DNA of 64,000 nt, taken from the IMG/VR virus record IMGVR_UViG_3300025371_000001; one strand, 5' to 3'. The notes beneath the pieces are model-generated. The model worked only from the letters and a program-made list of their open reading frames with translations. It had not been told where the DNA came from and made no database searches. Positions 13,396-62,148 of this stretch are shown in pieces. The position numbers were made by a program, and so were the translations under genes. The number at the start of each line of letters is the position of its first letter. Position 1 is the first letter of the stretch. The stretch is from an uncultured virus (IMG/VR IMGVR_UViG_3300025371_000001). Its lineage: Adnaviria; Zilligvirae; Taleaviricota; Tokiviricetes; Ligamenvirales; Lipothrixviridae.

Positions 13396-13598
13396 GAAAA
13401 CTTTAAATTCTACTGCGTTATTTATGTACTTAGGCGGGGTTCCCCGAAAGGGGTAGACCCGCGATCTGTGGGGCACGCACCCCCACGTGAATAAGCGACG
13501 ATGCGGAAGATAGCGAGTGAATGCGGACGATTAGAGATCGGAAAAAGTGCGGGTAATGAACTTTCATATTTCCTGTTGAAGTTCTGTAAAAGTGCGGT
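13396..13598 (+). CRISPR. Cassette copy 3: promoter, scaffold, variant repeat, 21-nt spacer, repeat
   Basis: Variant repeat ATTAGAGATCGGAAAAAGTGCGGG 13530-13553; repeat GTTGAAGTTCTGTAAAAGTGCGG from 13575. Confidence 0.75.
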
Positions 13599-13612
13599 CT
13601 TCTTCTGTTGGG

Positions 13613-14221
13613 TTAATTAATTTTGTCTTCTTCTGTTGGGTTAATTAATTTTGCTTTCTCGGACACTGATTGTATAGTCTTGACCAGCATCTCATTGAAA
13701 GGCCTTATAATAGACCCATTAGGTGAAGCGTGAGTTACATACCCTATTATTTTCCCCTCCATGTCCAATACTGGAGCACCACTTTCACCTTTAGTTACTG
13801 GGATATTTGTAAGCCAAAAGAAGGCGTTAAGCGGTTTTATTAACCTACCATATTTTACTGTATCTCCCTTTATCATAATTTGCATATTATAATCAAGCGG
13901 TTCTATAGCTATTGTTGCACCCATTCTAATCGGTGCAACGCCTATGTAATAATCCATAATTTTTGCTATAGAAAATGTCTTTACTGGTATTCTATTCTCA
14001 ATTAGGACTGGCTCACCTCTGTAGAAATGCCCCACAGTAAACACAACACCTTGAGACGTTATGAACGTAACTGTTGCTTCTCTACCCTTAGAATATATTT
14101 TCATCTTTTGACACCAGATGCCCAACGGAAGAGTGGTTTTCAAGATGAAATTTATTATAATAAATATAAAAAGATTTCTATTAACATGAAAAAATGTGAA
14201 ACTTGAAAAAAGGAAGTTCAA
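13613..14221 (-). CDS. Trypsin-like serine protease (true start probably downstream, MKIYSK)
   Basis: FTVGH and GESGAPV motifs. Confidence 0.7.
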   Translation of the reverse strand: MNFLFSSFTFFHVNRNLFIFIIINFILKTTLPLGIWCQKMKIYSKGREATVTFITSQGVVFTVGHFYRGEPVLIENRIPVKTFSIAKIMDYYIGVAPIRMGATIAIEPLDYNMQIMIKGDTVKYGRLIKPLNAFFWLTNIPVTKGESGAPVLDMEGKIIGYVTHASPNGSIIRPFNEMLVKTIQSVSEKAKLINPTEEDKIN

Positions 14222-20602: not shown

Positions 20603-21481
20603 ATGCAAAATGTTCTCATTACTGGTTCTTCAGGTTTTATAGGCAGTTCTCTTTTAGAGAAGTTAAAAAGTGAAGGTTATTATGTAATAGGAGTTTCAAG
20701 AAAAGACGTAGACGTTAAAGATTGGTGGAAACTCCTTAACATTCTCAATGAGAATAATATAGACACAATTTTTCACTTTGCCGCTACTTCTATCGTAGCT
20801 GAGGGCCATCAAGCACCGTATGAGACTATAGAAAACAACGTTATGGGAACTGCTGGTGTATTAGAGGCTGCAAGGAGGAGTTTGTCAGTTAAGAGAGTTA
20901 TAGTAATGGGGACTGATAAGGAATATGGAGAAGTGGAAAATGCGGACGAGAACGCACCGTTAGCTAAAAATAGCGGTATTTACGGTACTTCTAAGCTGGC
21001 ATCCTCACTTATTGCTCTTGCCTACAGGCAAGAATTCGGTATGAAAGTTACAGTAGTTAGGTCGGTGAATATATACGGCCCCAAAGATCATAACCTAACA
21101 AGGATAATACCTAAAGCTGTTTACAGTTTTAAGCACGGACAACCTTTTACGGTATACGTGCCTACTGGGCAGAGGGGGTATATATTTATAGACGATGTCA
21201 TAGAAGCGTTTAAGATTATTGAGAAACACGATGAATTAGACGTAATAAATATATGCAGTAAAGACGTACTAACTTCAGACCAGTTGGCTAAAATGATAGC
21301 GGAATTCATGCAGGCTAGGTACGGCGTTAATCCACAGATAACTTACAAAAAATCCCCATATCCAGAAATAGTTAAACAGTCACTTAACTGTGATAAATTG
21401 AAATCGTTAGGCTGGGAACAAAAATATGGAATTAAAGAAGGATTAGAAGCAACAATACCCAGCATTTTTAATGAACTTTAA
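20603..21481 (+). CDS. NAD-dependent nucleotide-sugar epimerase/dehydratase
   Basis: TGSSGFIG; YGTSK; NIYGP. Confidence 0.92.
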   Translation: MQNVLITGSSGFIGSSLLEKLKSEGYYVIGVSRKDVDVKDWWKLLNILNENNIDTIFHFAATSIVAEGHQAPYETIENNVMGTAGVLEAARRSLSVKRVIVMGTDKEYGEVENADENAPLAKNSGIYGTSKLASSLIALAYRQEFGMKVTVVRSVNIYGPKDHNLTRIIPKAVYSFKHGQPFTVYVPTGQRGYIFIDDVIEAFKIIEKHDELDVINICSKDVLTSDQLAKMIAEFMQARYGVNPQITYKKSPYPEIVKQSLNCDKLKSLGWEQKYGIKEGLEATIPSIFNEL

Positions 21482-22076: not shown

Positions 22077-22475
22077 ATGGCGGAGAAGCATATCAGATAT
22101 ATCATTGACGGCTATACTACACAGAGAGTTGAGGATATTAAGAAGGCGTTAGAGTCTAATTTAACTAACTTAGACGATGATATAAAGATAAGTAAGAATG
22201 GTTATAAGGTTTCACTGTCTTTCAGAACTCCAGCTAACGTTAGAGTGATGCAGTGTGAGGAGATTGATGAGCTATTGTCAAAAGTAGGAGTATTGGCGAC
22301 GAGGATAATAGTTTCAAAAGTAGTAACCCACGAATCTGCGACAGATACTGAATCGAATAAGAGATTTAATGTTAACCTCATTATAGCGGCTCTTTCTGGC
22401 GGAGAAACAGTTGAGAGAGGTGAGGGGATAATTCTTTCCTGTAAGAAAAGGGATGGAAGATGGGTAAGAATTTAG
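22077..22475 (+). CDS. Hypothetical protein
   Basis: 132-aa ORF with promoter. Confidence 0.6.
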   Translation: MAEKHIRYIIDGYTTQRVEDIKKALESNLTNLDDDIKISKNGYKVSLSFRTPANVRVMQCEEIDELLSKVGVLATRIIVSKVVTHESATDTESNKRFNVNLIIAALSGGETVERGEGIILSCKKRDGRWVRI

Positions 22476-22633
22476 GAAGAAAGAATAATGAGGAATTGTA
22501 TATATTATACCAAGAAGGAAAGAAACTTAGACTTAGTAACAACATTTTAGCCTTCTTACTTCTTTCTGCTATTGAAAAGGCGAGTAACTATTTCACCGAG
22601 CTTTTGCTAAGCAAATGTGGGAATCCTACACTA

Positions 22634-22790
22634 CCCGCACTTTTGCAGTACTTCAACCGTCCGCACGTAGTTGCTATCGTCCGCATCGTCTCTTATTCAC
22701 GTGGGGGTGCGTGCCCCACAGATTGTGGGTCTACCCCTTTCGGGGAACCCCGCCTAAGTAGTAGTTAGTGCAGTAGGATTTAAACTTTTC
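22634..22790 (-). ncRNA. Cassette copy 4, overlapping the 3' half of ORF 22460-22768
   Basis: Repeat 22634-22657; scaffold to ~22760; promoter 22778-22790. Confidence 0.8.
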
Positions 22791-22849
22791 GATATGTAGC
22801 ATGACCTCCAACCGTTCAAGGCGGGGAGGAAGTCAGAAAATTTTTAAGT

Positions 22850-25700: not shown

Positions 25701-25800
25701 CCCCGCATTTTTTCTAATTTCTGACCGTCCGCATCTGTCCGCATCGTCGCTTATTCACGTGGGCTAATGGACATCCTTTTCACGTAAATAGAAATATTTT
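25701..25800 (-). ncRNA. Short-variant cassette lacking the 5' hairpins
   Basis: Degenerate repeat plus CATCGTCGCTTATTCACGTGGG core; 5' part shared with 28150-28255. Confidence 0.55.
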
Positions 25801-28149: not shown

Positions 28150-28255
28150 CCCGCACTTTTTTCCGATCTCTAACCATCAGCATTCTGTCGCTATCTTCCG
28201 TAGCGTCGCTTATTCACGTGGGCTGAATCCTTTTTCATGTTAATAGAAATCTTTT
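28150..28255 (-). ncRNA. Short-variant cassette with variant repeat
   Basis: CCCGCAC-T-run-CCGATCTCTAAC (same variant as 13530) plus GCGTCGCTTATTCACGTGGG. Confidence 0.6.
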
Positions 28256-43848: not shown

Positions 43849-43996
43849 ATGGGTGTAGAATTGGTCTTCAGAGCCAAAATATCGAGTCACGGCAAAGGAA
43901 AATACATCATATACATCCCGAAGGAGTTCTCTGAAAAAGCAAAGGAACTCTATAACGATGGAGAGGTGATCGTAATTGTTGCAAGAGAAGGTTGAA
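43849..43996 (+). CDS. AbrB/SpoVT-like small regulator
   Basis: MGVELVFRAKISSHGKGKYIIYIPKEF... (read manually; ends approximate). Confidence 0.55.
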
Positions 43997-45342
43997 GAGG
44001 GGTTTAGGGTCTTAAACTTGGAAAAGGATGTTGATAAGGACGTTCTGGAGTTCGTTAGGAAATATCAGATTCTGGCATCTCATCTCTATTGGTCTAGAAG
44101 ATTAGGTATCAAACCATCAGACATAATTACCGAGAAGTTACAGAGGGATGTGAAAAGTTACTGGCGTTGGCAGGTTATAGATGAGAGAAGTCCAATGTAT
44201 TTATTCAAAAACGTGGAAAGGACATCGAGACCCTATTCAATGCTGATTAGAATACCCTTGCTGACGGCTCCCCGCTCTAAAGAGCGAGGGTTCTACGCCC
44301 ACTGGGGTGTCTCTCATAGTTCAAGCACCCCTCACGGGCGTGGCATCACAGTTCAGTGCCCGCCGTCAGCTGGGGGCAGTGCATGGCTCATCGTCTGTTA
44401 GACTTGCCATGCACCAACATACACGAGTATATATGTACCAAATAGTTTTAAATGTTTCGGTTATGAAAATCATGAAATGCCAGAGATGTGGGTTCAGAGA
44501 AAGTTGATGCACTACATCCCAAGAAAGGTGCATTTGTTCAGGATAATAGGTTAGTTCTGAGACTTAACAAAAAAGTAGAAATCGAAATACCGAAACGGGC
44601 TATTGGATGGTTGAATAAGAGGCTTTCCGAAAATCCAGATAAGAAGTCAATAAGGGTATTTGAAAGAGATAATAAACTAGTAGCACAAATAGTTCTTCAT
44701 AAAAAGAATGTGGTAAAATTACCTGAAAATCCGCTATTGGTTGTCGTAGATTTAAATAGTTCCTATGGTATAGTTGTCCATTATTGGGACAACCGATTAA
44801 TTAGGACAGAAAAATACAGACCACCAAACAGAGATATAAGGTGGAAAAGCGTAAAGAGACTAATGAAAGTTAGAGACAACTTGTACAATCAAGGAACAAT
44901 AACCCAACGTCAGATCGACCTTTATTCTGCATTGATAAGGAAAACGTTGAAAGGGAGTATGAAGAGTTGGATACAAAAAACTGTGGATAAAATAGTCAGA
45001 CGAACAAGACGACTTGCTAAAAGGCACAGGAAGGAGCCACTCGTTTTAATAGATGTGCCAGACGATAATTCGCTGAGAGGAAGTAGTTTACAACGTACAA
45101 TTAGATCGTTCTCTAGGTATTTGGAGAACATATTATCATGGTATGGCATATATTGGGAAGAGATGAGGCTTTACAGTACGATATGCCCCAAATGTGGCGG
45201 AAAGCTAAACTTAGAACAAAAAACTAAACGAATTAGAATCATGAGATGCCAGAGATGTGGGTTCAGAGAAGATAGGGATAACATACCGTTATACTGGGCA
45301 ATTAACAGACTCCCCGCCCCTAGAAGGGGCGAGGCTTCATAA
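43976..45342 (+). pseudogene. tnpB: Divergent TnpB split by a second omegaRNA copy (44261-44502)
   Basis: Frame 43976-44260 (...IRIPL) rejoins 44503 (VDALHPK...); VVVDLN, CPKCG/CQRCG, DRDN motifs. Confidence 0.7.
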
Positions 45343-53645: not shown

Positions 53646-53768
53646 CAAAATGAACGACAAGCCTCGCCCTTCAAATGAAAATGCTGACGATAGCGAGTGA
53701 ATGTGCACAGTAGAAGATTAGCAAAAGTGCAGAGAAAACTTTAAATACACACTCTTTAAATTTCGTTT

Positions 53769-54798: not shown

Positions 54799-54947
54799 TT
54801 TACAACACCGCTTTCTTCTAACCCCACAAAGTTAAAAGTTTTTGGAGTCAAATAATTGTGGGCAGTTCATTAATGCAAACAAAAAATTTAAACTATAGTA
54901 CATTATCACGTTATTTTGAAGAAGTGGCAGGTAAATATAATTTTGAT

Positions 54948-56442
54948 AAAGCGAACGGCAAACCTCGCCCCTTCTAGGGGCGGGGTAAAGTTTTTAAACT
55001 TAACATCTATTTCTCTTTCAGATGTCCTCCTCTGGTCAACTCTTAGGACATGAGGAGCGGGAGCCGATTTCTCCCGCAATACCAGAGGAGGGCGTCTACG
55101 AAGTTAAATATGAAAATAAGAGGACAAACGTAATTCGTCTTCTCCCAAACGGTTTTCAGGAAAGGAAGTTAAGGAAGTTAGCCGATGCCTCTGCCAGGTT
55201 GTTCAACGAAGTTAACTATGAGAGGAGGCAACAGTTCTTCCGCGGAGAGGAAGTGGACTTCAAAACAACATGGGACAAATACTACGAGAAGTACAAGGAC
55301 GTACTGGGTGTTAACGCACAGGCTGTGCTTCAGAAGAACAATGAGGCATGGTCGTCATTCTTCTCCCTCCTCAATCTAAAGAAAAAAGGAAAATTACCAC
55401 CGCATATTAATCACGTTTCACCACCTCGTTACTGGAAGAATGAGGAGAAGAAAAGGAAGTTGATACTAGTTATTAGACAGGATAGATACGAAGTGGATGA
55501 GAAGAACCACAAACTCATCCTCAAGGACTTCGATCTAGAAATAGAATTTGCTGGTAGGTTGAGGTGGTACGGTAAACAAGGCAGGTTGGAGATATACTAC
55601 GACGACACAGAGAACGCTTGGTACGCTTCAATACCAGTAGAAGTAGGTGTAGAAGTAACAAAGACTGGAAAGAAGAGTAAGTGGATCGTACGCGGTGAAA
55701 GGAAGTCAATCCAAGTTGAAGCTCCGAAGGGGAATAAGGTCGCGTCCATCGACTTAGGTATAAACATCCTAGCTAGCGTTGTAGTAGACGACGGTACCTG
55801 GCTACTTTATAAGGGCGTTAGAGCTAAGGAAGACTACTTCTACCTTCAGAAGAAGATAGCCGAGGTTCAGTCTCTCGCGGACAAGGCAAGAAATCTAGGA
55901 GAGTATGAAGCTCAGGAAGAACTAAACAGAGAGAAGAGGAGGTTATTCAAGAAACTAACTAGGCGTCTGCTTCATCTGTACAGAACTCTGGCATCTCATA
56001 TGGTTAAAAAACTTCATGATCAAGGAGTTTCAACCATTTACCTAGGCTACCCCTTCAATATCGCACAGGACAAGGGAAATAAATTCACCGTGAATTTGTG
56101 GTCTTACCATAAGTTGATGAATATCATCGAGTTAAAGGCTCAAGAGTACGGTATGAAGGTGTACGAAGTCGTTGAATATAACACGTCAAAGTACTGTGCT
56201 TATCACGACGTCGAAGTTAAGAGACAACCGAGAGGAGTAGTCACTTGTCCTAAGGGACATAAACTGCATTCAGACCTTAACGGTGCATTGAACATCCTGA
56301 AGAAAGCTGTTGGTATCACAATTTCAACAGTGAAAAAACCTTTGTCATTCCTAGTGCTGCATAACGGAGTAGCACCCGTAAAAGGGGTGTAACACCTAAG
56401 ACCTCGGGGAACCCTCGCCCTTTAGGGCGGGGAGGGGGTCAG
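54948..56442 (+). mobile_element. IS605/IS1341-group tnpB-only element
   Basis: TTGAT target immediately 5'; left-end hairpin; right-end hairpin ending TCAG; removal restores a reading frame. Confidence 0.85.
55022..56392 (+). CDS. tnpB: TnpB
   Basis: ASIDLG; YLGYP...VEYNTS; HSDLNGALNI. Confidence 0.92.
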   Translation: MSSSGQLLGHEEREPISPAIPEEGVYEVKYENKRTNVIRLLPNGFQERKLRKLADASARLFNEVNYERRQQFFRGEEVDFKTTWDKYYEKYKDVLGVNAQAVLQKNNEAWSSFFSLLNLKKKGKLPPHINHVSPPRYWKNEEKKRKLILVIRQDRYEVDEKNHKLILKDFDLEIEFAGRLRWYGKQGRLEIYYDDTENAWYASIPVEVGVEVTKTGKKSKWIVRGERKSIQVEAPKGNKVASIDLGINILASVVVDDGTWLLYKGVRAKEDYFYLQKKIAEVQSLADKARNLGEYEAQEELNREKRRLFKKLTRRLLHLYRTLASHMVKKLHDQGVSTIYLGYPFNIAQDKGNKFTVNLWSYHKLMNIIELKAQEYGMKVYEVVEYNTSKYCAYHDVEVKRQPRGVVTCPKGHKLHSDLNGALNILKKAVGITISTVKKPLSFLVLHNGVAPVKGV

Positions 56443-56654
56443 TACATTAATCTTGGAACAGTATTTGAGGTCAATCAGATACCCTCAGAGCGGAACAGTA
56501 TCATCCAGCCTGGAATAAAAGTTCATTCTTTTTTGACCGAGCAAATGTTTTATACCCTCATAGATCCTAAACTTTTAGAGATACTTAAGCAGAAAAAGAT
56601 AGATGGAATAAAAATTTATGAAAAACCCAGCTATAAACAAGTTACTTTTTACAT

Positions 56655-56813
56655 CCCGCACTTTTGCAGTACTTCAACCGTCAGCACATAGTCGCTATCG
56701 TCGGTAACGTCTCTTATTCACGTGGGGGTGCGTGCCCCACAGATCGCGGGTCTACCCCTTATCGGGGAACCCCGCCTAAGTACATAAATAATGTAGTAGG
56801 TAAAAAAGTTTTC
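56655..56813 (-). ncRNA. Cassette copy 7
   Basis: Repeat 56655-56678; promoter region identical to copy 1. Confidence 0.8.
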
Positions 56814-56900
56814 TGTAGTTAAGGGAGCGGAAAGCCTCGCCCTTCAGGGCGGGGAGGAGGTCAGCGAAAAGTTTAAAACCCATTTTTCTTATTTTGAAGT

Positions 56901-57734
56901 ATGCCAATCATTTCAGTCTACACGATAAAAGGTGGAGTCGGTAAAACTACTATGATAGAAGTATTAGCTTTAGGTCTTCTCTCTGCAAGAAAAAGAGTGT
57001 TAGTTGTTGATGCTGATTTACAAGCTGATATCTCGTACAGATTACTTGGAGAAACATTATCAACATTTTCAGTTTTTTCTAAGACGAATTATGGAATAGG
57101 TGCAGTCACGCTTGGTAATTTACCTCCATTGCCACAAAAGGTTGTAGACGAATTATATTTATTACCAATGGAGCCAGATACTATAGTTAAGGCAGACGAA
57201 AGGATAATAACCAATTTTGAGTTTCTAAGAGATGAAGATTTTATAAAAAAATTTGATTATATTCTGATAGATACTCCACCTTCTTATGATTTTGTTGTAG
57301 CCGAAAATATAATGAAAACATCCGACTTTATATTTACTGTAGTCACTCCATCAATACCAGTTATTAGAACTGTAAATATGGAATTACTGAGAACTTTACC
57401 CGCTGTTATGTCAACGCTTAAACGTCCAGCGAAGCTTGTAGGTATAATCAGAAATATGGTACACACAAGCAGATTTGTAACAACAGAGCAGATTAATCTC
57501 CTTATGGATAATTTAGAGAAGGTATGCCAACAAACAAAAATACCTAAATATACACCATGTTTCTTTACAACAGTCGTACCGCAAAGAGGTAATGTATTCG
57601 AGTATGATAGATTAAGGGAAATTATACTCTCACCGCAGTTGAGAAAGAAGTTATATTCTATTAAAACACAGTTAGCAATACGTCAGCTTACAACAGAATT
57701 TTTAAGTAGGGTGCAATATCTCTCTGAACACTAA
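56901..57734 (+). CDS. Second ParA/MinD-family ATPase
   Basis: KGGVGKT; DADLQ; ILIDTPP. Confidence 0.85.
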   Translation: MPIISVYTIKGGVGKTTMIEVLALGLLSARKRVLVVDADLQADISYRLLGETLSTFSVFSKTNYGIGAVTLGNLPPLPQKVVDELYLLPMEPDTIVKADERIITNFEFLRDEDFIKKFDYILIDTPPSYDFVVAENIMKTSDFIFTVVTPSIPVIRTVNMELLRTLPAVMSTLKRPAKLVGIIRNMVHTSRFVTTEQINLLMDNLEKVCQQTKIPKYTPCFFTTVVPQRGNVFEYDRLREIILSPQLRKKLYSIKTQLAIRQLTTEFLSRVQYLSEH

Positions 57735-57765
57735 CTAGGATGAGGCTTTCTAACCCTTAACTGCC

Positions 57766-57923
57766 GAAAAGTTTAAATTCCACTATGTTAACTACTAGTT
57801 AAGCGGGGTTCCCCGATGAGGGGTAGACCCGCGATCTGTGGGTCACGCACCCCCATGTGAATAAGCGACGATGCGGACGATAGCGACTATGTGCTGACGG
57901 TTGAAGTACTGCAAAAGTGCGGG
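57766..57923 (+). ncRNA. Cassette copy 8
   Basis: GAAAAGTTTAAAT at 57766; repeat 57900-57923. Confidence 0.8.
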
Positions 57924-57973
57924 GAACATTAATGAGGGTAAAATTTATTAATACTCTTTTTTATGTTACACAT

Positions 57974-60937: not shown

Positions 60938-61153
60938 CCCGCACTTTTGCAGAACTTCAACTTGTTTAGCTCATTCCACGAATATTTACTTTTAATCCCG
61001 CACTTTTGCAGAACTTCAACCATCCGCACGCAGTCGCTATCTTCCGCATCGTCGCTTATTCACGTGGGGGTGCGTGCCCCACAGAACGCGGGTCTACCCC
61101 TTTCGGGGAACCCCGCTTAACTAGCAGTTAGTACAGTAGAATTTAAAGTTTTC
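60938..61153 (-). CRISPR. Cassette copy 9: promoter, scaffold, repeat, 35-nt spacer, repeat
   Basis: Identical repeats 60938-60961 and 60997-61020; promoter 61141-61153. Confidence 0.85.
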
Positions 61154-62028
61154 TATAATGAAGTGGAAAGTGTCTGCCACACATCTGGAGACGCAGCTAC
61201 CCATTCGTAGCTAAACATTATAACTCCCTTTTTAAGTATAAGTCCACAACCTATTTCAGCCTTAAAGTCGTTAGTATATATTACTATGTAGTCGAGATAA
61301 AGCGGCACCGCACCAGTCCCACCAATACTTACTATATCATTGCCTTTGAAGTTTGCTAACGTATCTTCAGTTATGTAGAATTTATCTTTAAATTTCATGA
61401 ATATTTGAATTAATTCTTTTAAGTTGTTTACCTTTATTCCGTTTAGCTCGACAATATATTTTGCTGCAAAATTTAATACATCCTTATCACCTGTATAAAT
61501 AGAACCGTTTACATAAAAGAAACCCTTTTCTGGAAGCATATTACCGTTTACCTTTACCTCATCTGTGTAATAGATGATTTTGCAGTCAGGAGGATGTGCC
61601 ATGCTATAATAATAATAGTGAAACAGTTTCACTATGAAATTGTCCTTTTCTTTCTTCGTAACAGCTTCTTGTATAATTTTCTTAAGCATTTCAATCTTAT
61701 TTGTATTATTTATAATTACTATCTTTTCAATGTATTTAAGGATTTCAGTTTCATCTATCCACGGAATAGGAATAGCTATACGAACTTGATTTTTGTCGTC
61801 TTCATAAACTATTGCTACGTCTTCTAGGACATAATTACCACCTTCTTCAACTAAGTCACCAAGATCACTAAGTTTTACTACACCGAGTATTTTTTTAACA
61901 GAAGAGCGAGGTATAGAGTAAGTGAACACAACCTTAGCATCCTCATACTTCTGTTTATATTTGAGTAAAGTAGTGAACACGTACCCTTTATTTTTAAATT
62001 CCTCAGCCATATAAGCTATCCTAATCAA
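61153..62028 (-). CDS. Hypothetical protein
   Basis: 291-aa ORF. Confidence 0.65.
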   Translation of the reverse strand: MIRIAYMAEEFKNKGYVFTTLLKYKQKYEDAKVVFTYSIPRSSVKKILGVVKLSDLGDLVEEGGNYVLEDVAIVYEDDKNQVRIAIPIPWIDETEILKYIEKIVIINNTNKIEMLKKIIQEAVTKKEKDNFIVKLFHYYYYSMAHPPDCKIIYYTDEVKVNGNMLPEKGFFYVNGSIYTGDKDVLNFAAKYIVELNGIKVNNLKELIQIFMKFKDKFYITEDTLANFKGNDIVSIGGTGAVPLYLDYIVIYTNDFKAEIGCGLILKKGVIMFSYEWVAASPDVWQTLSTSL

Positions 62029-62148
62029 AAAGAAATAAACTTTTTCTTCTCACACTTTCCCGCACTTTTACTAAAGATTAAAAGCCCCACCCTTCAAGGC
62101 GGGGAGGAGGTCAGAAAAGTTTTTAGATTTCCTACCAGCTTTAAACAT

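Follow-up and report, generated by a model that had tools for sequence, protein, structure and literature searches.

A 64,000-nucleotide stretch of DNA from an uncultured virus (the window) contains an open reading frame, starting at 56443, that runs straight into a 24-nt repeat at 56655. Why does a single CRISPR-like repeat lie against a coding sequence, and how did it get there? A reading of the sequence alone had proposed that single-repeat cassettes such as this one are mobile, that they abut coding sequence so that flanking DNA becomes the spacer, and that repeated capture of flanks could build arrays without Cas1.

Cassette K cuts a conserved viral gene

The frame does meet the repeat: the stop-to-stop frame at 56365-56691 enters the minus-strand repeat at 56655-56678. 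Positions 56443-56654 encode residues 26-96 of a conserved viral protein of ~260 amino acids. We found 13 longer homologues (12 of 259-266 amino acids and one of 131; 60-94% identity), and all 13 continue beyond the junction. About 165 codons (~500 nt) of the gene are lost at the repeat of this cassette, which we call cassette K. The features of this region are:

54873..54947, plus strand: codons 1-25 of the ~260-aa gene (MQTKNLNY...NFD), from the translation and the N-termini of homologues; ends in the IS605 motif TTGAT
54948..56442, plus strand: IS605-type element with TnpB at 55022-56392; clean insertion between codons D25 and Y26
56443..56654, plus strand: relic of the gene, residues 26-96; homologues are longer
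56615..56654, minus strand: predicted guide of cassette K, probably the first ~20-40 nt of the flank
56655..56678, minus strand: the one repeat (24 nt) of cassette K; matches the pKEF9 repeat at 17/24 positions and the host-type pNOB8 repeat at 13/24
56679..56776, minus strand: scaffold of cassette K, ~95 nt conserved, with two GC-rich stems and the core CACGTGAATAAG; predicted 5' part of the guide RNA
56777..56813, minus strand: promoter of cassette K, conserved among cassettes, which we take to be an archaeal BRE/TATA-like promoter
56816..56864, plus strand: hairpin resembling an IS605 end (miniature element); the window has 20 of these

In record 18 of run X4, 56443-56654 is followed by ~560 other bases, after which the sequence resumes at 56865; an allele with the 3' end of the gene intact and no cassette K would look like this. 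At the junction, 11 of the 13 homologues have the residues Ile-Gly. In intact homologues, these codons place CCN immediately 5' of the junction, whichever Ile codon is used. We had forecast CCN at this junction ahead of the homologue search, and the forecast was borne out.

Related cassettes are dispersed across the window

The window contains about eleven dispersed cassettes; the core 16-mer has 11 matches, compared to a mean of 0.01 in shuffled sequences. A full cassette has a BRE/TATA-like promoter, a scaffold of ~95 nt with two GC-rich stems, and a 24-nt repeat that ends in GTG(C/T)GGG. Where there is an array, its repeat unit is exactly the last 24 nt of the cassette. Covariation in the scaffold is near nil (1 of 17 pairs), and the single-strand fold of the cassette K scaffold has z = -1.43. 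Besides cassette K, we identified:

3693..3716, plus strand: lone degenerate repeat without a scaffold
4083..4506, minus strand: cassette A, scaffold with five repeats and a degenerate end; spacers of 25, 35, 25, 34 and 29 nt
6365..6523, plus strand: cassette C, single repeat, divergent from the effector gene
13396..13598, plus strand: cassette D, two repeats and a 21-nt spacer; locus L004 has the same upstream context and another flank
22634..22791, minus strand: cassette E, single repeat
25702..25765, minus strand: cassette F, degenerate, without the 5' stems
28150..28224, minus strand: cassette G, degenerate, without the 5' stems
30763..30978, plus strand: cassette H, two repeats and a 35-nt spacer
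35501..35652, plus strand: cassette I, single repeat
57726..57923, plus strand: cassette L, a 198-nt insertion
60938..61154, minus strand: cassette M, two repeats and a 35-nt spacer; locus L026 has the same upstream context and another flank

By scanning metagenomes for a pattern, we obtained 34 loci, most of them short contigs, and an effector search added L035. Before counting, we excluded L021 (a likely chimera with Ns), L007, L013, L014 and L015 (the window's own genome), and L036 (a duplicate of L035). This left 52 cassettes, some of which are duplicate assemblies.

Decayed or scaffold-less repeat ends, like the one at 3693-3716, also occur at 53681-53736 and 62059-62082, and 1.1 kb of homology to L026 is bounded by the end at 62059. 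A second type of scaffold (in L003, L016, L030, L035, and pKEF9, L037:3493-3510) has a 16-nt motif directly before the first full repeat. This motif reads as a promoter-like element in reverse orientation and may be where the host's integration machinery acts. Spacers next to the second scaffold type are 36-44 nt long, and those next to the window's type are 33-35 nt.

A TnpB-like effector is linked to the arrays

Between cassettes A and C lies a gene for a candidate effector:

4547..6127, minus strand: predicted TnpB/Cas12f-like effector of 526 amino acids, with RuvC residues D220, E455 (shifted) and D491, a zinc finger, and an insertion of ~85 amino acids

This protein has 16 close relatives at 74-90% identity. 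Its predicted structure (mean pLDDT of 71.7, with the insertion poorly predicted) best matches Cas12f and TnpB. The RuvC-II glutamate is shifted in the Sulfolobales IS605 TnpB at 55022 as well.

Among the 34 metagenome and viral loci, the effector is present in one independent locus (L035) besides the window's genome, and its gene and array are arranged there as in the plasmid pKEF9. When we ran tblastn against plasmids, we found one full-length homologue, in pKEF9 itself (a conjugative plasmid of Sulfolobus islandicus, NC_006422; 43.5% over 91%), where it is split into two ORFs. The six-repeat CRISPR array of pKEF9 is upstream of this homologue and divergent from it (head-to-head). In this array, the repeat ends in GTGCGGG and matches the repeat from L024 at 18 of 24 positions; the second stem, the core, and the pre-repeat motif of the viral scaffolds recur in the leader. 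The five spacers of pKEF9 are 39-43 nt long, and four of them match viruses (SIRV2, SSV4, YNP1 and YNP2, the last with 9 mismatches), at targets that lie behind TCA, CCT, CCG and CCT, respectively. Thus, the effector and an array are linked in three independent cases (the window, L035 and pKEF9). Judging by sequence features (RuvC motifs, a zinc finger, and linkage of effector and array), the viral system is a V-U-like candidate. The effector clade had no match to V-U6 through V-U45 in the one supplement that we searched.

Empty alleles show that the cassettes are mobile

Cassette E also cuts a gene. As described in the sequence-only reading, ORF 22460 runs into the repeat at 22634, and its first 58 amino acids match 24 homologues of 153-167 amino acids, all of which are longer:

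22460..22633, plus strand: 58 initial codons of a gene for ~155 amino acids; the rest is cut off by cassette E

ORF 3752 was thought to be another such case. It does abut a degenerate repeat at 4083, but this is the end of the five-repeat array of cassette A rather than a single-repeat cassette. ORF 3752 is nearly whole, as full-length homologues end within about 5-30 amino acids of the same point, and a junction forecast for this ORF failed. The generalization that single-repeat cassettes abut cut genes holds for K and E but not for F, G, I and L, which cut no gene: F and G are just downstream of natural stop codons; I is turned toward a promoter, and L lies where a stop and a start codon overlap.

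Natural gene ends at these points, with no empty alleles, would have argued against mobility; at K and E this is not what we found. Looking for empty sites in related genomes, we found that cassette L is missing from Logan contigs of two runs (X4 record 19, with the joint at 57725-57924, and X3 record 13), which skip 198 nt. Conversely, the window is empty at 36150-36158, where L018 and L019 are filled:

36150..36161, minus strand: empty site, CCA and then the target; L018 and L019 carry a ~310-nt insert with a 9-nt duplication

Because empty alleles exist, the cassettes are mobile, as had been proposed. Cassette L has an imperfect duplication of 5-9 nt, where the stop codon of ParA overlaps the start of the next gene, and the triplet upstream of it is TCT. 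Cassette E recurs in L029 with the same upstream context, joined to an epimerase gene that is 1.2 kb further along, after CCA (window 21426).

Many targets lie behind CCN, and only the right junctions are exact

To define guides, we took the 30 nt after each repeat-like end, which gave 102 ends and 87 unique guides (the pattern is loose and includes false ends). We compared these to sites with no preceding repeat in the cassette-flanking DNA and the window, a search set that favors local matches. Of the 87 guides, 25 had an uninterrupted match and 62 had none. For 14 of the 25, the best uninterrupted match was preceded by CCN, compared to a background of 4.3% (binomial p = 2e-13, with rows that are not fully independent). 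The other 11 include weak matches, an IS-end motif, a tandem duplication, and some clean matches, such as a spacer from L008 behind TTG and the flank from L019 behind GTT. At the cassette E junction, the homologues continue with Met or Arg, which would make the triplet at this site CAT or YCT/NCG; a forecast that the next residue would be Trp failed. The targets of the pKEF9 spacers give independent support for the CCN motif. Intact alleles of the targets of relatives' cassettes are present in the window, for example at 21426, 23248, 36158 and 39588.

The right junctions are exact and the left junctions are ragged, with short duplications or deletions. In 10 of the 23 pairs that we tested, homology extends far beyond the junction (105-1220 nt downstream), so the cassettes at these sites are joined to genomic DNA rather than merely to an orphan spacer. 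Five filled/empty pairs retain co-oriented DNA from upstream of the motif, to within about 114 nt of the junction, and the point at which it stops varies: a 9-nt duplication (L018), -7/-12 (L001), -20 (L006), -114 (L019), and the 5-9-nt duplication at cassette L. Left junctions thus span +9 to -114. The inserts in filled/empty pairs are about 310, 1630, 290 and 440 nt, and 198 nt for cassette L. Because each of the two short duplications also keeps overlapping genes intact, selection might be responsible for them.

Arrays vary next to a constant flank

The arrays look like CRISPR arrays, with 24-nt repeats and unique spacers of 19-44 nt that match related contigs or, for pKEF9, named viruses. 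Most spacers are 33-44 nt; a minority are 19-29 nt and may be deletion products. The CCN motif and most of the spacer lengths fit acquisition by the host's type I-A machinery, which in Sulfolobus islandicus selects CCN and takes spacers of mostly 39-41 nt, according to the portion of the study available to us (bioRxiv 486738). The window's own spacers (21-35 nt) are short for type I-A and count against this origin. For array A of the window and for the array in L024, we found no convincing phage protospacer.

If arrays were built from captured flanks without Cas1, as suggested by the sequence-only reading, then spacers should match the flanks of other insertion sites. None of the 20 internal spacers corresponds in register to the terminal flank of another cassette, and the spacers that do have matches have targets separate from the terminal flank. 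Instead, the arrays vary while the flank stays constant: L008 and L030 have a common flank with different spacers, and one site has a single repeat in L002 and L027 and a repeat-44 nt-repeat arrangement in L028, with an identical flank, which fits the gain or loss of a spacer. These results do not support the building of arrays from captured flanks without Cas1; rather, the arrays grow or shrink between the scaffold and the flank, like CRISPR arrays. By analogy to the guide RNAs of TnpB, the flank would occupy the position of the guide.

For seven guides, a match with 2-7 mismatches or an altered motif lies on the same contig, no more than about 620 nt away (again, the search set favors local matches), and five of the seven also match relatives. 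The last "spacer" of array A (4107-4135) matches sequence upstream of the promoters of other cassettes (in L032, behind CCA), so the cassettes may target each other's upstream arms. Also, ORF 13613-14221 has at its 3' end a tandem duplication of 27-28 nt that forms the flank of cassette D (13599-13655), and the triplet before the second copy is TGT instead of CCN.

How might a cassette move onto its target?

CCN is found both at spacers and at genome junctions, and the simplest account of this is that the junctions are former spacers. We give about even odds to the view that each cassette is a guide-RNA gene belonging to a virus-borne, V-U-like TnpB system of the pKEF9 type and that the single-repeat forms are arrays that recombined onto their targets. 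Each cassette would give rise to a scaffold-repeat-guide RNA, which the 526-aa nuclease would use in trans. Cas1, Cas2 and Cas4 of a host type I-A system, as the presumed source of spacers, would insert 33-44 nt from the 3' side of CCN and duplicate the 24-nt repeat. The nuclease would cut the protospacer, which often might be in a neighboring gene of a co-infecting relative. Then, the PAM-distal broken end would pair with the spacer DNA and copy back the repeat, the scaffold and the promoter; the PAM-side end would be rejoined after variable resection, so that the target would either have a few of its bases duplicated or lose some. Repair by this route would produce the pattern that we see, with an exact junction between repeat and protospacer and a ragged left junction. 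The flank would be the new guide, and the cassette could home without a transposase. The carrier would be immune because GGG replaces CCN, and the intact alleles of relatives would stay cleavable, so the cassette could home into them. The asymmetry of the junctions and the local matches of seven guides favor this account. Against it weigh the 62 guides that have no match, the 11 best matches that are not behind CCN, the short spacers of the window, the near lack of covariation in the scaffold, and the split of the pKEF9 effector gene into two ORFs.

It is unlikely, but well worth weighing, that the junctions are the direct work of host Cas1. After Cas4 had trimmed a long DNA end at CCN, this end would be half-integrated as a giant spacer, at the spacer side of the repeat, and recombination would resolve the other side; the flank could then serve as a guide without there having been an earlier spacer or a cut by the viral nuclease. 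Host enzymes alone would then explain both the exact junction between repeat and CCN and the ragged left end. Also, the repair of a cut protospacer from a spacer predicts precursor arrays, which we did not see: none of the 20 internal spacers equals a terminal flank. On the other hand, the co-oriented upstream DNA that is kept in five pairs would need a second event if Cas1 acted directly, while it is natural if a single break was repaired. Furthermore, in the part of the pKEF9 study that was accessible (PMC4872121), the array acquired no spacers in culture, which also weighs against acquisition by the host in our first account.

The cassettes do not behave like IS605 elements

We think it improbable that each cassette is a non-autonomous element, either IS200/IS605-like or a one-ended rolling-circle element, whose GCGGG right end inserts after CCN and whose repeated capture of flanks builds arrays without Cas1. 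The sequence-only reading had likened the GCGGG end to a transposon right end, and a transposon would account for the mobility, the exact right end and the truncation of genes (at K and E). The effector descends from the TnpB of IS605, and IS605-end hairpins precede 16 of 44 distinct cassettes. However, the same hairpins precede 12 of 54 other promoter-like sites (raw counts). Hairpins of this kind are a genome-wide feature, with 20 across the window and 0-1 per shuffled sequence. Thus, the IS605 end-like sequence noticed beside the promoters of several cassettes is indeed there for 3 of the 11 in the window (D, E and K) but is not specific to cassettes.

Other evidence argues more directly against a transposon end. 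The left end and the insert size of the cassettes are not fixed; what they share with a non-autonomous IS200/IS605 copy is the exact right end. IS605 elements do not combine an exact right end with a ragged left one. The true IS605 in the ~260-aa gene, which serves as an internal control, inserted cleanly after TTGAT, and the same element is found elsewhere after TTGAC or GTGAT (L017, L029 and L031). The junction motif of the cassettes, CCN, is neither the TTGAY of these elements nor TTTAA. In the available portion of a study of S. islandicus, TTTAA is the target motif of IS605, whose TnpB cleaves 15-28 nt away from it (bioRxiv 2023.03.06.531077). If the cassettes captured flanks, one would also expect spacers to be contiguous with flanks, which they are not. 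Finally, there is no Y1 transposase among the 98 ORFs of the window or among 92 of the 154 listed ORFs of related loci, although a host copy could act in trans.

The 20 hairpin sites (from 6623 to 63921) fill intergenic gaps, often after TTGAY and often before a promoter, and in several homologous ORFs the hairpin is apparently translated into a terminal, TSSPP-like tail. The hairpins may be recombination points for the shuffling of genes. We speculate that in some cassette insertions they provided the left-hand homology.

The viral repeats differ from a host-type repeat

There is also little chance, in our view, that the cassettes are ordinary mini-arrays or single-repeat units that serve the host's Cascade, or that they encode an RNA anti-CRISPR, with the TnpB-like gene as a bystander and the junctions due to passive recombination between spacer and protospacer. 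Viruses of the Sulfolobales carry mini-arrays without cas genes (as described in the accessible part of PMC6858448), CCN is the host's interference motif (similarly, from PMC3737332), and, besides the window's genome, we found the effector in just one independent locus (L035) among 34. However, most of these loci are short contigs, and known mini-arrays have repeats that are identical to the host's, as far as the available text of PMC11656645 describes them. The viral repeats end in AGTGCGGG, not ATTGAAAG, and are accompanied by a conserved scaffold of ~95 nt. In register, they match the host-type pNOB8 repeat at 13 of 24 positions (shuffle p of 0.0025 and 0.0014), a resemblance that we count in favor of spacer acquisition by the host, and the pKEF9 repeat matches it at 10 of 24 (p = 0.044). 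The linkage of scaffold, repeat and effector across a virus family and a conjugative plasmid also argues against a bystander.

Relationship to known systems

The closest known counterpart of the cassettes is the homologous CRISPR locus of pKEF9, which has a similar 24-nt repeat ending in GTGCGGG, the same scaffold core and pre-repeat motif, an adjoining homologue of the effector, and targets behind CCN or TCA. Unlike the viral genome, with its dispersed cassettes, pKEF9 has one array of six repeats. The accessible part of Liu et al. 2016 (PMC4872121) reports that the pKEF9 array is transcribed and processed, that it collapsed by repeat recombination, and that it gained no new spacers during active host adaptation. 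There, the array is termed leaderless and is assigned to host Cas effectors, which are assumed, and is not linked to the adjoining TnpB-like gene. We found neither this link nor dispersed, target-seated cassettes in the literature, though supplements or subscription papers may hold them.

In type V-U systems and CRISPR-associated TnpB (Altae-Tran 2023; Makarova 2025), a single TnpB-derived effector lies by an array, with no adaptation genes, as in the virus. About 50 independent origins of this association have been inferred, according to the excerpts available (PMC12669027; PMC10691335). The viral system differs in that the scaffold is fused 5' of the first repeat (the arrangement of a TnpB guide RNA), there are many cassettes distant from the effector, the motif is C-rich, and there are units with the flank in the place of the guide.

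In their predicted action, the cassettes also resemble IS200/IS605 TnpB systems such as SisTnpB1, in which the guide is DNA that flanks a conserved RNA end, a displaced motif makes the carrier immune, and the element spreads by cutting and recombination (from the available part of PMC10705468). In contrast to these, the cassettes have no defined left end, CCN instead of TTTAA or TTGAY, arrays with 24-nt repeats, and an effector with an insertion of ~85 amino acids. In its predicted activity, a cassette is like a TnpB guide RNA when its repeat is single and like a CRISPR array when the repeat is repeated.

Viral mini-arrays and single repeats were already known (PMC6858448, PMC11656645 and PMC7099407, each available in part). 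From the accessible text of the first of these, the mini-arrays of SPV1 and SPV2 and the single-repeat units (SRUs) of phages are similar to the cassettes in having 1-2 spacers, a promoter-bearing leader, targets in adjacent genes of related viruses, and mismatches in the carrier, along with adaptation by the host, which we presume for the cassettes. Unlike the cassettes, they have host-identical repeats, no viral effector, and stand-alone repeats without leaders. The single repeats in the window have a promoter and a scaffold and are seated on the target, the genome encodes an effector at 4547-6127, and the match to the host-type pNOB8 repeat is partial (one host repeat type was compared).

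The free-standing homing endonucleases of T-even phages cut a neighboring gene in a relative and spread by repair. Recombination between spacer and protospacer (spacer-mediated phage-CRISPR recombination) was reportedly seen in staphylococci by Varble in 2019. Unlike either of these, targeting by the cassettes would be RNA-guided and reprogrammable, and the product would be a stable, heritable guide gene.

Somewhat more tentatively, with less than even confidence, we suggest that a Cas12-like CRISPR system has partly returned to life as a transposon, with no transposase: host Cas1 would write the spacer, the viral nuclease would cut, and spacer-templated repair would seat a TnpB-style, flank-guided gene on its target; by driving itself through populations of co-infecting viruses, this gene would reshuffle or prune their genomes. 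If so, both of the transition states between TnpB and Cas12 interconvert within one genome, the long-known orphan array of pKEF9 is a type V system with a C-rich motif, and archaeal viruses contain a natural RNA-guided homing system that requires no transposase. This bears on how a flank-guided TnpB RNA becomes a CRISPR array and on where type V arrays that lack Cas1 get their spacers. Because flank-guided and arrayed forms co-occur, at the same sites across strains and with a readable motif, both steps could be tested in culturable Sulfolobales with pKEF9. The effector is also a candidate for a compact thermophilic nuclease whose motif is CCN rather than T-rich.

The genome and other searches

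The window is AT-rich and gene-dense, and it encodes ParA/ParB, ThyX, a dCTP deaminase, sugar enzymes, and several TnpB proteins. Because related contigs encode the ATV_ORF273, MoxR/VWA and P131 families, the source, as far as its sequence indicates, is a hot-spring archaeal virus, most likely a large bicaudavirus-like virus of the Sulfolobales. ORFs 32137 and 32559 had been guessed to encode capsid proteins of a filamentous virus; this guess gained no support, and the relatives have the three families just named instead. These two adjoining ORFs (32137-32990; 135 and 143 amino acids) look like paralogs, with basic N-termini and no family match, and are possibly a capsid or DNA-binding pair.

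We found no Cas1, Cas2 or Cas4 in the same sets of ORFs that were checked for a Y1 transposase. Pattern scans of viral contigs gave either no match or just the L035 contig, and a scan of genome contigs with two repeat patterns gave no match in Sulfolobales. The lone hit in that scan, a Ruminiclostridium contig, has no array or scaffold, and we took it to be due to chance. Rfam gave no family at the gathering score in the window, and chance matches only around two arrays. No array was seen in positions 1-50000 of ATV. The virus SMV1 has a stretch (L038:2236-2259), between two convergent genes, that is identical to the L024-type repeat at 16 of 24 positions, with no scaffold in the 200 bases examined.

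The window also contains a complete IS607 (7795-9655), with a serine recombinase and TnpB, and another TnpB that is split (43976-45342). In ORF 2598-2960, a 45-nt tandem repeat (3 x 15) at 2598-2770 encodes glycine-rich units.
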